Shown here: positions 689 to 5,580 of the stretch, in pieces | Numbering within the stretch: position 1 is the first letter of the stretch | Layout: each line of letters opens with the position of its first letter | Source: a virus | IMG/VR virus record: IMGVR_UViG_3300032024_000177 | Span: 1 to 7,733 of that record | DNA length: 7,733 nucleotides | Reading direction: 5' to 3' (one strand) | Notes under the pieces: generated by a model | Told to the model about the DNA's origin: nothing | Seen by the model: the letters and a program-made list of their open reading frames with translations, nothing else | Databases searched by the model: none | Made by a program: the position numbers and the translations under genes

Positions 689-859
689 ATGAAAAATTTC
701 AAAATAACACTAAAACTAAAAGAAATTTTAACAAACGATGATTTTACTATCATTGTAAAAACTGTATCCGCAAAATCAAAAATATCTGCATTAAAAAAAA
801 TTCGATCATTCACTAACTATGATCGTTTTACCATTCAATCATGTGAGCTAAGAAAATGA
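689..859 (+). CDS. Hypothetical 56-aa Lys-rich protein (MKNFKITLKLKEILTNDDFTIIVKTVSAKSKISALKKIRSFTNYDRFTIQSCELRK). It is not in the ORF track.
   Basis: Hand translation gives an open frame of 56 codons in roughly 25-30% GC DNA, where stop codons are frequent. Its TGA overlaps the next ATG as ATGA (856-859). AGG lies 8 nt upstream of the ATG. Confidence 0.5.
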   Translation: MKNFKITLKLKEILTNDDFTIIVKTVSAKSKISALKKIRSFTNYDRFTIQSCELRK

Positions 860-1059
860 AAAATAAACCGGCGACCGCAGCAGAACGACAAGCAAAACGA
901 AAAGCAAAACTTTTATGTGACTCACAAGATAAAGAAATAATATTGATTAGACTTGAAAAAGCCTATCAAAATTATTATTCAGACGTAAACGGAATAAGAA
1001 ATTTTGTCGATGAAATAGGCGAAATATTAGAAAAATTCAGTTCAGGAATACAGCCATGA
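856..1059 (+). CDS. Hypothetical 67-aa protein with a basic N-terminus (AERQAKRKAK) and an acidic helical C-terminus. It may be a DNA-binding or antitoxin-like regulator.
   Basis: ORF-track entry. It has ATGA overlaps with both neighbours, and the third operator palindrome lies inside it. Confidence 0.7.
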   Translation: MKNKPATAAERQAKRKAKLLCDSQDKEIILIRLEKAYQNYYSDVNGIRNFVDEIGEILEKFSSGIQP

Positions 1060-1316
1060 CAACTAATGAATTAAAAAAATTGATCGAATCAGGTGATATT
1101 GAACTCATTACTTTTTTTGCTGGATTTAAAGCTATGGAAGATGAAAAACCCACTTGGGAGGTTTTCGGGTACGGCTCTAAAATCGTTTCATCATTTGGCG
1201 AATGTTTGAAAAATTCCAGTAGAAAGGAAACAAACAAGCATTATACAAGTTTGGATAGAGCTTACTCAGAAATTAAACAATTGGGTTATAAAGGGAAAAT
1301 TGAAATTGATGGTTAA
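1056..1316 (+). CDS. Hypothetical 86-aa protein, last gene of the plus-strand cassette
   Basis: ORF-track entry. AGGA lies 7-8 nt upstream of the ATG, which forms an ATGA overlap with the upstream ORF. Its stop (1314-1316) overlaps the stop of the convergent zot-like gene (1313-1315). Confidence 0.7.
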   Translation: MTTNELKKLIESGDIELITFFAGFKAMEDEKPTWEVFGYGSKIVSSFGECLKNSSRKETNKHYTSLDRAYSEIKQLGYKGKIEIDG

Positions 1317-2359
1317 TCTGTGCTTGGCGTTTTATTAGGTTTAGACGTAGCTGGATAACTTGAATTATCGGCAACTTGCAAAGGCTTTTTTTCCCTAAAT
1401 GGATTGAAATAATTTCCGGCAATGAAGTTTTTGCAAAATTCCTGACTCATGGCCACATGCACGGCTTGACGAGAGTAACACTGGCAATGATCGGGCGTTG
1501 AAACACAACCAATCAAATGAGGGATAGCCGTGACTTCGACCAAGGCGGCATAAGCCGGAGCGGAAGCCGGTAAATTCGGAATGACTGGAACAAAATCGGG
1601 AAAAGCCTTAACCGTCACCGGCACCGAATTAACAACAGTCGTCTTGGTTTTATCAACTGAATCAACTTTATCAACATCCACTGCTAACTCAGGATCAACA
1701 CGGCTAGACATACGTGCATAGACGCGATACCCCATAACGGACACAATCAGCAAAACCGCAATAAAAGCATACAAAGCGATGGGTTTACGATGCGTTTGTG
1801 TAGTATGAAAGCTCGACGACTTGTAAAGTTTAAAAATCTGCTTAGGCAGCTTGTACGGGCGCACAACGGCATCACCACGAGACCCTGTATTATCATTAAT
1901 CTCGGGCCATTCATATTCCGATCGACCAGACCACTTAGCGACCAAATGAATATGCCGCCCGATCATAGTGCGTACGCCGGTATGCAAAAGTTTTGGACTT
2001 TGCGAAATCAACCAAAAATCGAGGCCTAAATGCCTATGCGTTTGTAAACGCGAGATAGCCTCGCTTTGAGATGAGGCAGAATTTGCAGCAGGCCAAATGC
2101 GCTGCACTTCATCGGCAACAACCAAACTCCCCGAAGTGGCCCAGACCGGCCAATGCTCCAAAAAGAAAAACTTGTCATCATCAAGCACCGTGCCGCATAA
2201 ATCACACAAAGGCGACTTACAATAAACAACCTCATGGGGTATTTTCAATTCAGGAATACCATGAACAAAAATCTTGCGCTGTGACGGAAGACGCGTTAAT
2301 TCTTGCACGAGCCAAGCCGTTTTCCCAGCGCCGGGCGTGCCGGTAATTAAAGTCATCAT
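1313..2359 (-). CDS. gI: Zot/pI-family morphogenesis (assembly) ATPase
   Basis: Walker A GTPGAGKT at the N-terminus. Walker B LVVADEVQ, compared with LLVLDECG in M13 pI. One central TM helix (IALYAFIAVLLIVSVMGY). It holds the terminal position of the structural block and has an ATGA overlap with the upstream gene. Confidence 0.93.
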   Translation of the reverse strand: MMTLITGTPGAGKTAWLVQELTRLPSQRKIFVHGIPELKIPHEVVYCKSPLCDLCGTVLDDDKFFFLEHWPVWATSGSLVVADEVQRIWPAANSASSQSEAISRLQTHRHLGLDFWLISQSPKLLHTGVRTMIGRHIHLVAKWSGRSEYEWPEINDNTGSRGDAVVRPYKLPKQIFKLYKSSSFHTTQTHRKPIALYAFIAVLLIVSVMGYRVYARMSSRVDPELAVDVDKVDSVDKTKTTVVNSVPVTVKAFPDFVPVIPNLPASAPAYAALVEVTAIPHLIGCVSTPDHCQCYSRQAVHVAMSQEFCKNFIAGNYFNPFREKKPLQVADNSSYPATSKPNKTPSTD

Positions 2360-2640
2360 CCGTGAATTGACCCCGCAAAAACGCCAGCCGCCTTAATAGC
2401 CGCCTTGGACACAAAACCACCCAACATAATCCCCATACTTTCGCCAAATCCGGCAATATTAAGAATTTGCAGCGTATCAGCAGAAATACCGCCATACGAA
2501 CTTTGAATAAAGGAAACAGCGTTATTAACCAGAACATCAAAACCGGCAAAAGTGCCAATAGTAATGCCCAAAGCAAGCAGGATTCGTAAACCAAAAGAGC
2601 CGGCAATGGCAACAAGTGCCGCCTGTAATAATGCAATCAT
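2356..2640 (-). CDS. pVI/Ace-position small hydrophobic minor virion protein (94 aa)
   Basis: Strongly hydrophobic with several TM segments. It lies between the pIII-like and Zot-like genes, as gVI does in Ff and ace does in CTXphi. Its start abuts the pIII stop (TAAATG) and its stop overlaps the zot ATG. Confidence 0.7.
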   Translation of the reverse strand: MIALLQAALVAIAGSFGLRILLALGITIGTFAGFDVLVNNAVSFIQSSYGGISADTLQILNIAGFGESMGIMLGGFVSKAAIKAAGVFAGSIHG

Positions 2641-4161
2641 TTAAGCCACCGAGAAAATAATCATAAGAGCGACTATGGACGCGACAATAACCATAATCGG
2701 ACGCATTTGAGACGCAAAAGAACATACCGGATCCCAAGGGAAACTATATGGCTTACCAAACACGGTAAATGTCTTGGGTGACGGGCACGACCCGTTAGAA
2801 GAAAAACCACCAACCGGAGTAAAACCGGCATTGACTTTTGAATGAACTAAATCATCATCCGGCTTAAATACATCGGCGATTTTCATGGACTGACAACCCA
2901 ACGTGTCCGGATAACGATCACAATTAACGTCGCCCTGCCCTTTGCCTTTACCACTACCACCCGCACCATCCGCACCGCCACCCGTCGAAATCGTAGTAGA
3001 ATCACCATTTGGGGCGGTTGTCGTAGTTGAAGTGCCGCCCGGATCGCCGATCAAATTACTAGATTCGGTCTTTGTAGTCGTTGTTGTACCGTCTGGATTC
3101 CCAACCGTTGTACTGTCCTTAACGGTTTTTAAATCTGCATTAACACATTGACGGACACCGCCGTTTTGCACACATCCGGCCTTGGTTGCTGAAGTACCAT
3201 CGTTTGACACGCAAACAGGATTTCCATTGAAATACCCGCAATTTTTAGCACTGGTCTGATACGGTTTACCATTTAACGTCCCAGTGCCGGGCGTAGTATC
3301 AATGCAAATCTCGGAACCGTTGACTTTGCCACATTTGCGATTTTCTTTCGGGTTTGATGTACACGTTGTATTGCCCTTAGCATCGGTCAAGCAACCAGCG
3401 TCACCCGTACCTGAAGGACTGGCTTTAATAGCAACATCGGTCGATGCAGCCGCAACTGCAGGTTTTGCATTATTTGCCGAAGAGTTCGCTGTGTCTTGAC
3501 ATGTACCTGTAGATTTTGCGTGATAATCACAATAAATCTTGGCATCGGCGGTGCCATGAAAACAACCGCCTATAAAATCTTCGGGCGTATATTCGTAACC
3601 TATACCGCTTGAAACGGCTTGCATTTTGGAATTGCTGGATTCGGTTATAGATATCGTTATACCGGATTCGGGAGGGTTCAAAAAACTGTCATTCTCACCT
3701 TGCAAAACGGCAATATCGGCAGGCGTACCAGCAGGAGGACACACAAAAGGAGGATCAACACAAACGCCTGTAGTTGCATTACGAACTTGTGGAGCGGTGC
3801 AGGCAGGAGCATTTATGCAATTGTTACCAGATAAAACACCACCACCTGGGCAATTGCTTACTGTAGTAACCGTCACGGCCTGATAATTATCAATAGGGCC
3901 AAATGTTTTTGAAGTGTATTCAGGCGGTGAATTATACTGAGTAAAAGTGCACGCGCGACCATTAGAACCGACCGTTAAAATATTAATTGGTGGAGCAGAA
4001 CCATTGGTGCAAGCACCCGACAAAGAGCTAGAAGAAGCTGCGGCCGACCCGGTATTGATATTGGAAGTTTGATATGTTGTTGACGTGATTGCAGGGTACG
4101 TATCAGCATGTGCAAATGTTGAAGATACCGTCAAAATCAAAAACAGGATTATTTTCATCAT
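2641..4161 (-). CDS. gIII: pIII-like adsorption/minor coat protein (506 aa from the ATG at 4161; the ORF track extends to a TTG at 4197)
   Basis: Sec signal MMKIILFLILTVSSTFAHA|DT, Cys-rich N-terminal domains and a Thr/Gly linker. The C-terminus FTVFGKPYSF...hydrophobic anchor resembles M13 pIII FVFGAGKPYEF...anchor. Confidence 0.85.
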   Translation of the reverse strand: MMKIILFLILTVSSTFAHADTYPAITSTTYQTSNINTGSAAASSSSLSGACTNGSAPPINILTVGSNGRACTFTQYNSPPEYTSKTFGPIDNYQAVTVTTVSNCPGGGVLSGNNCINAPACTAPQVRNATTGVCVDPPFVCPPAGTPADIAVLQGENDSFLNPPESGITISITESSNSKMQAVSSGIGYEYTPEDFIGGCFHGTADAKIYCDYHAKSTGTCQDTANSSANNAKPAVAAASTDVAIKASPSGTGDAGCLTDAKGNTTCTSNPKENRKCGKVNGSEICIDTTPGTGTLNGKPYQTSAKNCGYFNGNPVCVSNDGTSATKAGCVQNGGVRQCVNADLKTVKDSTTVGNPDGTTTTTKTESSNLIGDPGGTSTTTTAPNGDSTTISTGGGADGAGGSGKGKGQGDVNCDRYPDTLGCQSMKIADVFKPDDDLVHSKVNAGFTPVGGFSSNGSCPSPKTFTVFGKPYSFPWDPVCSFASQMRPIMVIVASIVALMIIFSVA

Positions 4162-4162
4162 A

Positions 4163-4240
4163 TCAATAACTGCCAAAAAGAATCCAAGCCGCTCCAATTA
4201 TGGCAACAGACAGATGAATCAAATAAATATCGGAAATCAT
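4163..4240 (-). CDS. 25-aa hydrophobic peptide (MISDIYLIHLSVAIIGAAWILFGSY), a pVII/pIX-like candidate that is not in the ORF track
   Basis: Hand translation. ATGA overlap with the stop of the 107-aa ORF. Its TGA ends 1 nt before the pIII ATG at 4161. GGGG lies 3 nt upstream. Its size and hydrophobicity resemble Ff pVII/pIX. Confidence 0.45.
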   Translation of the reverse strand: MISDIYLIHLSVAIIGAAWILFGSY

Positions 4241-4560
4241 AAACCCCGCCGTAAAACTTTTATGCCCCAAACGGCAGCCCATACCGCGAGCACCATAAAA
4301 GACGATTCGGAAACATCAGCAAGTGAAAGGCCTGAAAAATTGTGCTGATAACCCACCTGGGCACAAATCGGATAGGTCCGAACCAAACTATAAGAAGTAC
4401 CGGCAGACGTATTAAAAAATAGAGTCCCCGACTGGGTATCAATCACAGAAAAAGAAACAGGAACGGCAGCACCCGATAAACCAGCCACAACCGAACCGGA
4501 AATTTCAGCCGTTGAAGCTTCGGACAATGTTGAATAGCAATAACCATTAAAATAATTCAT
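4237..4560 (-). CDS. 107-aa putative minor virion/membrane protein with a C-terminal TM helix plus a basic tail (FMVLAVWAAVWGIKVLRRGL)
   Basis: ORF-track entry. It sits between the pVIII and pIII genes and has a coat-protein-like C-terminus. I recognise no homologue. Confidence 0.6.
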   Translation of the reverse strand: MNYFNGYCYSTLSEASTAEISGSVVAGLSGAAVPVSFSVIDTQSGTLFFNTSAGTSYSLVRTYPICAQVGYQHNFSGLSLADVSESSFMVLAVWAAVWGIKVLRRGL

Positions 4561-4584
4561 AAAAAAAGGGGCGGTTAAGCCCCT
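4561..4584 (-). terminator. Rho-independent (probably attenuating) terminator directly after the major coat gene
   Basis: The minus strand reads AGGGGC-TTAACC-GCCCCT followed by a T-run (A7 at 4561-4567 on plus). This is the position of the strong terminator after gVIII in Ff phages. Confidence 0.55.
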
Positions 4585-4590
4585 AATTCC

Positions 4591-4788
4591 TTACAGTGCG
4601 CGGCGAATGTATTTGAAAGCGGCAATTGCCACAATCACACCAAGCACAACACCGGCAATCGTAACGCCGTCAGTCGATGCGGTATTAAGAGCGGCGGTAA
4701 CGTCTGCAGGTACAGCGGCAACCGAAACACCAACCGAAGCAAGGAAAGCGACGGCGGAATAACCTATTTTACGAAATAATTTTTTCAT
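4591..4788 (-). CDS. gVIII: Major coat protein precursor (pVIII-like, 65 aa)
   Basis: The signal peptide MKKLFRKIGYSAVAFLASVGVSVAA is followed by a mature peptide of about 40 aa. That peptide has an acidic N-terminus (PADVTAALNTASTD), a hydrophobic core and a basic C-terminus (KYIRRAL). AAGG RBS lies 7 nt upstream. Confidence 0.85.
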   Translation of the reverse strand: MKKLFRKIGYSAVAFLASVGVSVAAVPADVTAALNTASTDGVTIAGVVLGVIVAIAAFKYIRRAL

Positions 4789-4844
4789 GATTTTACCTTT
4801 GTTTAAATGTCCATAACGGACGTTGAATGGAGTCGAAACCCCGG

Positions 4845-5180
4845 TTATGCCTTATTGAATAAAGGCTTTTTTTCTTCAATTGCCGGAAGATCAACAACTT
4901 TTGAAGTCTGTATTTTTTCAGGTTGATGAATAGGGATGATTTCTTCATCCACCAACAACTGAAAAAATGTTTGTCCGTTCATCATGCCCTCACGAACGGG
5001 AATCATGGCATCACCACCAACCAACTCTTTAAGCTGATTAATTTGAGATGCAGAGGCATTTTTTAAGTTCATGTTCAAGGTGCGCGGTTTAAATTCCTGC
5101 ACTTTTGCGCGTATACGCGGGTTTCCCTCGTTGTCGTTATCTTCAAGAATTTCGAGTATTTTTAAGTGTGAATGAGCCAT
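4845..5180 (-). CDS. Putative ssDNA-binding protein (pV position, 111 aa)
   Basis: Assigned by position only, immediately after gene II and before gVIII. AAAGG RBS lies 8 nt upstream. I see no sequence similarity to M13 pV. Confidence 0.5.
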   Translation of the reverse strand: MAHSHLKILEILEDNDNEGNPRIRAKVQEFKPRTLNMNLKNASASQINQLKELVGGDAMIPVREGMMNGQTFFQLLVDEEIIPIHQPEKIQTSKVVDLPAIEEKKPLFNKA

Positions 5181-5199
5181 TGTTTATGCCTTTAGGTAG

Positions 5200-5580
5200 T
5201 TAAGCGACTAAGCGCAATTGAGGTTGTGGTGTGTAAATATGCTTTGAAGCGGGTTGAACGTAGTTTTCAGGAAATTGAGCGCAAAAATTCACTTCAATGA
5301 AGCGAACAAAAGGAATGATCTGGGCGCCGTCATTAAGGCCGTTCATATTTTGCAGGGCAGCGCGGGATAAACCACACTCGGTTAGCATTTTTATATGACG
5401 ATCAAAAGTACATTGACTCATTGATTCGCGAGCAATTAACCAACCGTCCCGCTGAATATCGTTATAAGTACGAAAAACTGAATCAGCCAGAACCGTTGAA
5501 ACTTTGCCGGTTTTTTTGGATGTTTTAGAAAATTGAACGCGTAAAGCGTGTTTTATGTCATATGTATTGAGTGTTTTCAT
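5200..5580 (-). CDS. Possible pX-like protein from an in-frame internal start of gene II (126 aa, MKTLNTYDIK...)
   Basis: The ATG at 5580 aligns with the M13 pX start (MNIYDDSAVLD). AAGGG lies about 7 nt upstream. Confidence 0.4.
   Translation of the reverse strand: MKTLNTYDIKHALRVQFSKTSKKTGKVSTVLADSVFRTYNDIQRDGWLIARESMSQCTFDRHIKMLTECGLSRAALQNMNGLNDGAQIIPFVRFIEVNFCAQFPENYVQPASKHIYTPQPQLRLVA

Follow-up and report, generated by a model that had tools for sequence, protein, structure and literature searches.

The window analysed here, the whole 7,733-nucleotide stretch of IMG/VR virus record IMGVR_UViG_3300032024_000177, is a complete circular inovirus genome that carries three small genes at 689-1316, immediately past its zot-like assembly ATPase gene. 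ORF1, ORF2 and ORF3 are one operon. An earlier note, made from the letters of the window, had treated them as a single AT-rich cargo cassette. Comparison with relatives shows instead that the three genes do not form one conserved cassette: ORF2 and its operators are the conserved module, with ORF1 and ORF3 as swappable cargo. ORF2 and the palindromic sites beside it recur in six inovirus lineages, a plasmid-like contig and a chromosomal island; the slot occupied by ORF1 is variable, and ORF3 is independently mobile. The regulatory core is probably, though far from certainly, a self-repressed accessory operon in which ORF2 acts as the repressor.

ORF2 and its palindromic sites

ORF2 (856-1059, + strand, 67 aa) is predicted to be an operator-binding autorepressor. 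It is a member of a rare family that carries no annotation; the proteins are small, are predicted to be all-helical and share an invariant basic helix, T-A-RQAKR--KL. Two relatives were found in a 5.8-billion-cluster protein database, and an exhaustive profile search of 1.84 billion representatives yielded about four more credible members together with one repeat protein that is probably spurious. Translated searches of annotated plasmids and phages with ORF2 gave no match, and a word-pattern search of IMG/VR viral contigs revealed no encoded relative of ORF2 or ORF3. The residues invariant across the family (T7, A9, R11, Q12, A13, K14, R15, K18, L19 and K26) are clustered in the basic N-terminal helix, placed at residues 7-19; the N-terminus is conserved and the C-terminus variable. 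ORF2 of the window is 69% identical to that of inovirus L019 (about half of the C-terminal residues are identical by eye), with a dN/dS of 0.35 that indicates purifying selection. The AlphaFold2 model consists of helices at 8-22, 24-42 and 44-63, broken at residues 23 and 43, and contains no strand.

Exact GTGA(G/C)TCAC sites lie beside the gene in all eight other independent ORF2-family loci that were recovered. The window has three sites. L019 has four, three upstream and one in the gene. In L028, a plasmid-like contig where the gene is convergent with an RPA replication gene, three sites surround TATAAT. The contig end cuts off the promoter of inovirus L029 (also L030), which has one site directly 3' of the stop codon. 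The chromosomal island locus L031/L037 adjoins a DUF1778/GNAT pair and has two sites upstream and two downstream (three counted in L031, four in L037). L118, a short contig, has one site, in the promoter spacer, and inovirus L119 (also L120) has five, two at the promoter and three between the stop codon and zot. In L083, an inovirus of 61% G+C with four sites, O1 is followed by TTGACG, O2 in a 17-nt spacer, TATAAT and O3; then come a gene for a 56-aa protein and the ORF2-like gene, whose TGA stop is overlapped by the last of the four sites. All 19 of the 19 tabulated sites have an identical exact core, with varying flanks, in genomes of roughly 40% to 61% G+C.

In the 287 kb of fetched DNA that served as background, from loci that had not been selected by pattern, composition predicts about 1.8 sites, and none was observed outside ORF2-family loci. 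Within the window the three copies of the palindrome GTGAGTCAC (six strand matches with at most one mismatch) compare with 0.75 matches expected, a count reached by none of 200 shuffles, and the genome holds no further copy even at one mismatch. The reverse test, a scan of IMG/VR for paired sites, returned 79 loci, with an ORF2-like protein encoded at a single one, L083. The DNA pattern alone thus led to an unrelated GC-rich inovirus, which has the predicted layout immediately past zot. The suggestion in the earlier note that the middle protein binds DNA therefore gains strong comparative support, since the ORF2 family is always accompanied by GTGAGTCAC sites. A full-text literature search for GTGAGTCAC found unrelated primers and similar uses only.

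The module recurs in six inovirus lineages (the window, L019, L029, L083, L119 and probably L118) and adjoins the 3' end of zot in all of them (in L118, probably). As a separate observation, the lone ORF2-family gene at L037 4042-5260, between two operator pairs, lies directly 3' of the DUF1778/GNAT toxin-antitoxin pair on a 45-kb chromosomal-type contig. Among the other loci selected by pattern, L105 (9-167), L054, L062 and others carry GTGASTCAC as regular tandem arrays or in repetitive coding sequence, and many of them are GC-rich.

None of the three products is recognisable, as the earlier note had it. ORF1, ORF2, ORF3, their homologues and the proteins that occupy the ORF1 position elsewhere give nothing significant in Pfam, PHROGs, NCBIfam or PADLOC; the sole PADLOC match, ORF2 to PDC-S33 (E = 0.0028, 15 bits), is below threshold. 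The searches thus revealed no homology to toxins, defence proteins or known regulators. Alignment profiles of ORF2 and ORF3 retrieved nothing below E = 0.05 among PDB sequences. Profile searches, and Foldseek on the ORF2 and ORF3 models, of the kind that had been proposed, gave no function; weak fold matches came from ORF3 only, and the one match of the ORF2 model was rejected as meaningless.

Promoter, operators and leader

The putative sigma-70-like promoter on the + strand consists of TTGTTT (613-618), a 16-nt spacer and TATAAT (635-640), as originally described. Of the operators, O1 (GTGAGTCAC, 595-603) lies upstream of the -35 element and has an equivalent in L019, L028, L083 and L119. 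O2 (GTGAGTCAC, 622-630) lies inside the spacer between -35 and -10, and a spacer operator is present in every ORF2-family locus with a visible promoter (L019, L028, L037, L083, L118 and L119). The promoter layout of the window is the same in L028, L118 and L119. From the operators through promoter and leader to the start codon (585-703), the window matches L019 6302-6420 at 85% identity.

The third copy, O3 (GTGACTCAC, 917-925), is 295 bp downstream, within ORF2, over the codons for C-D-S-Q. The triad of palindromes noted earlier thus exists, at 595, 622 and 917, although its third member does not sit at the promoter. The O3 region is an inverted copy of the O1 region, with 29 nt (897-925) that are 79% complementary to 595-623. 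L019 keeps its in-gene site despite an amino acid change from Cys to Ser (TGT to AGT). L029, L037, L083 and L119 have no in-gene operator; each has instead one at or just past the stop codon. Most loci therefore have a distal site, either inside ORF2 (917 in the window, 6703 in L019) or at or beyond its stop, and none was found in L028 or on the short L118 contig. These placements are complementary, which suggests that a distal site may be needed, for looping or as a roadblock.

A leader hairpin, GGTTTCA-N5-TGAAACC (649-667, + strand; z-score -2.35), lies at the 5' end of the predicted transcript. Its stem is retained in L019 and L119, and L118 has an 8-bp stem of other sequence in the same place. 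With four sequences, the conservation of a 7-8 bp leader hairpin is at most suggestive. Rfam gave no credible match.

The operon as an accessory locus

The reading frames and the ATGA overlaps that join them (856-859 and 1056-1059) were confirmed in the sequence, and the hand counts of G+C in the earlier note (15/60, 20/60, 31/60 and 34/60) were reproduced exactly. G+C is 30.3% across the three genes and 43.9% in the core at 1313-7318; at third codon positions the values are 0.16-0.26 and 0.37-0.43. The stop codons of ORF3 (+ strand) and zot (- strand) overlap tail to tail in TTAA (1313-1316), and no terminator-like structure was detected at this junction on either strand. For the window, the earlier description thus stands: the block is AT-rich, has its own promoter and coupled translation, and lies immediately past zot on the other strand. 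As defining traits, AT-richness and opposite strand do not survive comparison, since the module of L083 lies on the zot strand in a phage of 61% G+C.

The proposed survey of relatives for variability found the block to be missing from 14 inovirus contigs that share the replication protein (44-78% identity): none of the 14 encodes a relative of any of the three proteins. The locus shows a position outside the conserved genes for replication, structure and assembly, a promoter of its own and patchy occurrence among relatives, all as expected of an inovirus accessory (moron) locus; its ORF2 part nevertheless recurs in five other inovirus lineages. Nor does it behave as free cargo, as had been supposed. 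The module is instead inherited together with the replication and integration block: between the window and L019, pII is 81%, a 111-aa protein 74% and the attP-like hairpin 85% identical, whereas the assembly genes cannot be aligned.

The variable first slot

ORF1 (689-859, + strand, 56 aa, pI 10.1) is a putative gene in the variable first slot of the operon. It has the lowest G+C of the three genes, 24.6%, and a weak Shine-Dalgarno sequence. In all six inovirus lineages slot 1 holds an open frame of 56-93 codons whose start codon is equidistant from the conserved leader. ORF1 is unrelated to the slot-1 proteins of L019, L029, L083, L118 and L119, and the occupants in the window, L029 and L083 and the N-terminal domain in L119 are mutually unrelated. 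In L019 the first gene encodes a 69-aa protein, and ORF3 is absent. The L019 and L118 slot-1 proteins are homologous (33% identity, E = 1e-9), which makes that occupant, at least, a conserved protein.

At L119 2715-3182 (also in L120) one reading frame joins a 93-aa slot-1 domain to an ORF2-like domain, in a protein of 155 aa. The fusion speaks for joint action of ORF2 and the slot-1 protein. The ORF2 relatives outside inoviruses (L028 and L031/L037) have no slot-1 gene. The most probable reading of the slot-1 proteins is as rapidly evolving effectors or partners of ORF2. The TGA stop of the L119 fusion lies within a GTGAGTCAC, with two further sites before the end of zot.

The ORF3 family

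ORF3 (1056-1316, + strand, 86 aa) has 13 homologues in the 5.8-billion-cluster database, which share a conserved core, NSSR...K-Y-SLDRAY. The family was found only in Methylococcaceae, on plasmids, islands and an inovirus prophage. Its carriers are Methylobacter tundripaludum SV96, Methylomonas lenta, metagenome-assembled Methylobacter genomes and the megaplasmids of Methylobacter sp. YRD-M1 and Methylomonas sp. AM2-LC. The homologues are always standalone genes in mobile-element settings: between nikA/relaxase and a replication gene, on TrfA (TrfA/RPA) and Rep3 plasmids, or adjoining a resolvase, integrases or a Toprim gene. In M. tundripaludum SV96 (L015 10001-11126) an inovirus prophage with a different, Phage_GPA-type replication protein carries the homologue directly past zot; the two genes share a strand, and an orphan DNA methylase gene comes next. 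A Rep3 plasmid contig (L025/L026 3124-3703) carries two ORF3 paralogues in tail-to-tail orientation, with about 41-44% identity to ORF3.

The dN/dS of ORF3 is about 0.13-0.18, with pN far under pS in each pairwise comparison, which indicates purifying selection. AlphaFold2 predicts a small alpha/beta fold (mean pLDDT 77.7). A function drawn from its fold matches (eL38, NDUFS4 and uncharacterised phage proteins) was rejected because the matches are weak and generic. Also rejected was an ORF3-like N-terminal domain in protein P0021, which would have made it an ORF3-ORF2 fusion (hhalign probability 0.4%). Judging from context, ORF3 is most likely an add-on from the gene pool of methanotroph plasmids, islands and phages, and we would guess that it acts on the host or on competing elements.

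Proposed mechanism and alternatives

We propose that an ORF2 dimer would read each 9-bp palindrome through the invariant N-terminal basic helix. Bound to the spacer site O2, it would block RNA polymerase and the operon would hold its own expression at a low set level, with help from O3, which would act as a roadblock or by looping the DNA. Repression would also limit antisense transcription into zot, since ORF3 and zot meet tail to tail and no terminator was detected between them. Translational coupling would supply ORF1 and ORF3 in fixed proportion to the ORF2 repressor.

Several observations weigh against this proposal. On the DNA side, the link between ORF2 and the palindrome is, as comparative evidence, a correlation. 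Paired GTGASTCAC sites occur in 78 viral contigs with no ORF2 relative, often as tandem or coding repeats, and with 78 of the 79 paired-site loci of this kind the motif is necessary for ORF2 and not diagnostic of it. L118 offers one site only within the short stretch available. The promoter was not called by a consensus scanner, since its weak -35 hexamer fits TTGACA at just three of six positions. On the protein side, confidence in the ORF2 model is low (pLDDT 69.5, pTM 0.33), and the model matches no known DNA-binding fold in PDB sequence profiles or in a Foldseek search of PDB structures. The fold matches of ORF3 (eL38, E = 0.02; uncharacterised phage proteins, E about 1e-3) imply no function. 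ORF1 has no homologue except itself in the 5.8-billion-cluster database and is possibly non-functional; its status as a gene depends on position only, because no homologue was found anywhere.

In one alternative, only ORF2 and ORF3 are genes and ORF1 is a non-functional or purely regulatory upstream frame that loads ribosomes onto ORF2. This would fit the low G+C of ORF1 and its weak Shine-Dalgarno sequence, the unrelated slot sequences of the other phages and the missing slot-1 gene at the non-phage ORF2 loci. It sits poorly with an open slot frame of 56-93 codons at the same distance from the leader in all six lineages, with the true homology of the L019 and L118 occupants and with the L119 fusion, where the slot-1 domain is part of a protein; we consider it improbable. 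If ORF1 is a gene, the operon might also be read as a reversed type II toxin-antitoxin-like module that stabilises the episome or prophage, with ORF1 as a small toxin, ORF2 as antitoxin and repressor, and ORF3 as passenger or third component. Small translationally coupled genes on a mobile element, the second predicted from comparison to regulate itself through palindromic operators that cover its promoter, would suit such a module, as would an antitoxin-like division of ORF2 into conserved DNA-binding N-terminus and variable C-terminus and the physical interaction that the L119 fusion suggests. Toxin-antitoxin pairs are common in inoviruses, and their partners are shuffled (PMC6813254). Neither a known toxin nor consistent pairing was found, however. 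No slot-1 protein, nor ORF3, matches a toxin family in the four annotation databases searched, ORF1 is just 56 aa long and lacks a recognisable catalytic motif, and lone ORF2 relatives with operators exist in L028 and L031/L037. The partners are unrelated between the window and L019 beside ORF2 proteins that are 69% identical, which is hard to reconcile with specific neutralisation. The chance that the operon is of this type seems low.

A further alternative is that ORF2 operates a switch in phage lifestyle, controlling virion production or copy number through convergent transcription into zot or through a roadblock at the 3' operators against read-through. The module does abut the 3' end of zot in all six lineages with no terminator between ORF3 and zot in the window, it is convergent with the replication gene in L028, and in L029, L037, L083 and L119 operators lie at or just past the ORF2 stop between convergent genes. 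Co-inheritance with the replication and integration block, beside assembly genes that differ, points the same way. Yet no copy of GTGAGTCAC lies close to the core promoter region (7256-7391) or, beyond the triad, anywhere in the genome at one mismatch, and a separate small regulator with its own inverted repeats is present at the divergent core promoter. The module is dispensable, as the 14 replication-protein relatives do without it, and convergence with zot is not required, because in L083 the two share a strand. We give a switch of this kind little credence and favour the self-repressed accessory operon.

A more far-reaching version of the self-repressed operon is unlikely, if conceivable. 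In it, the ORF2 family would be an unrecognised prokaryotic class of basic-helix DNA-binders, whose dimer grips the 9-bp AP-1-like GTGA-G/C-TCAC in one major groove in the manner of bZIP or bHLH proteins. It would form a portable socket for slot-1 genes and ORF3, the latter being a methanotroph-specific counter-defence or host-takeover factor.

Comparison with known systems

The closest functional analogue of ORF2 is RptR, a 79-aa all-helical autorepressor from an E. coli defence island (PMC12255303). Both are very small all-helical proteins encoded in the operon that they control (fold and control being predicted for ORF2). In both, a triad of short palindromes overlaps the promoter of the protein's own operon, as the ORF2 loci display, and helix and sites are both highly conserved. 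RptR has been called bZIP-like by its authors, since the short palindromes imply two helices gripping a single major groove (PMC12255303). The two proteins show no sequence or fold match in a PDB sequence profile search or in Foldseek of PDB structures. RptR reads TAGCTA with a C-terminal helix, whereas the invariant residues of ORF2 are in the N-terminal basic helix and its site is GTGA(G/C)TCAC. RptR is encoded by the first gene of its operon and ORF2 by the second, and a further operator, distal to the promoter and placed within the gene or at the 3' end, sets the ORF2 loci apart from RptR. RptR is found in restriction-modification islands, ORF2 in inoviruses and plasmids.

Antitoxins of toxin-first type II systems (HigA, MqsA and HicB) resemble ORF2 in that the second of two coupled small genes on a mobile element represses through promoter palindromes, a role that is predicted for ORF2. 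Unlike them, ORF2 has no helix-turn-helix or ribbon-helix-helix domain and no recognisable toxin, it is sometimes alone, and its partners are swapped without matching change in ORF2. A ribbon-helix-helix protein (Arc/MetJ/CopG) is likewise not indicated, with helices only in the AlphaFold2 model and no Pfam match.

Eukaryotic bZIP factors bind the AP-1/GCN4 site TGA(C/G)TCA. The core of the ORF2-associated operator, TGAGTCA, is identical to the AP-1 site (binding being predicted), and in the ORF2 model a basic helix precedes amphipathic helices. ORF2 has no Pfam bZIP match at E up to 1, however, and its low-confidence model shows three helices separated by breaks in place of one long zipper. 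The resemblance is therefore an analogy at most.

Accessory genes beyond zot include ctxAB of CTXphi and, in Pf phages, the PfiTA toxin-antitoxin pair and others. The operon described here resembles these in lying past the assembly ATPase gene, with its own promoter, and in varying among relatives. There is no homology, and here the regulator and operator part is conserved across phage lineages whereas the flanking genes vary. The general picture of inovirus accessory genes is given in PMC6813254.

Taken from sequence comparison, ORF2 and its operator would be a new protein family and site with a familiar regulatory job, and the modular socket appears to be new for inoviruses within the literature searched. 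The unannotated 67-aa family is paired with an exact 9-bp operator, with support from eight further independent loci of very different base composition. If this is correct, it offers a very small sequence-specific repressor and operator for engineering methanotrophs and filamentous phages. The region past zot in one group of inoviruses would be a conserved regulated socket with exchangeable cargo, and hence a place to seek new small phage effectors. ORF3 marks a gene family common to plasmids, genomic islands and inoviruses of Methylobacter and Methylomonas, hosts that matter for methane cycling and whose mobile-element biology is almost unexplored.

Genome and other features

The circle is evident from positions 1-55, which are identical to 7679-7733, and L027, a contig assembled independently from a second sample, crosses the junction at 99.8-100% identity. 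A megablast search of GenBank phages with the whole genome gave no match. The - strand carries the core genes, among them a Phage_CRI-type replication initiator (5200-6420) and the zot-like assembly ATPase gene (1313-2359; Pfam Zot E = 3.6e-16, phrog_197 E = 2.6e-66), the convergent neighbour of ORF3. The host is probably a member of the Methylococcaceae.

An imperfect hairpin of about 100 nt (7596-7695) runs on into 1-30 of the circle, with arms at 7596-7610/7681-7695 (93%) and 7613-7633/7653-7673 (86%), and is 85% conserved at L019 5796-5870. We take its arms, CGCATAAT and ATTATGCG, to resemble XerC/D dif half-sites, and the hairpin could be an attP that folds as that of CTXphi does. A + strand gene at 7392-7586 (64 aa, phrog_5642; 60% identical to a homologue in L007) is divergent from the core operon, and between the two (region 7256-7586) is a 22-nt inverted repeat (7287-7308/7319-7340). 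This gene and the repeats are probably the phage's own repressor and operators, distinct from the ORF2 system.

A 69-aa frame at 389-598 was rejected as a gene and is probably non-coding, since L019 preserves patches of the DNA but not the encoded protein. The AT-rich intergenic DNA at 270-312 contains a GC-rich palindrome (284-311) that resembles a polylinker (GTCGAC, CCCGGG, GGATCC). It is natural, because it is identical in the independent contig L027, and could be an origin or packaging signal. A perfect 12-nt inverted repeat, ATGGAAGTTAAA-T-TTTAACTTCCAT, occupies intergenic positions 169-193. The core operon also encodes, at 6549-6947 on the - strand, a 132-aa protein whose Cys-rich stretch (CPVC...YCKEAC) is zinc-ribbon-like and which has partial homologues in L003, L007, L008 and L011.

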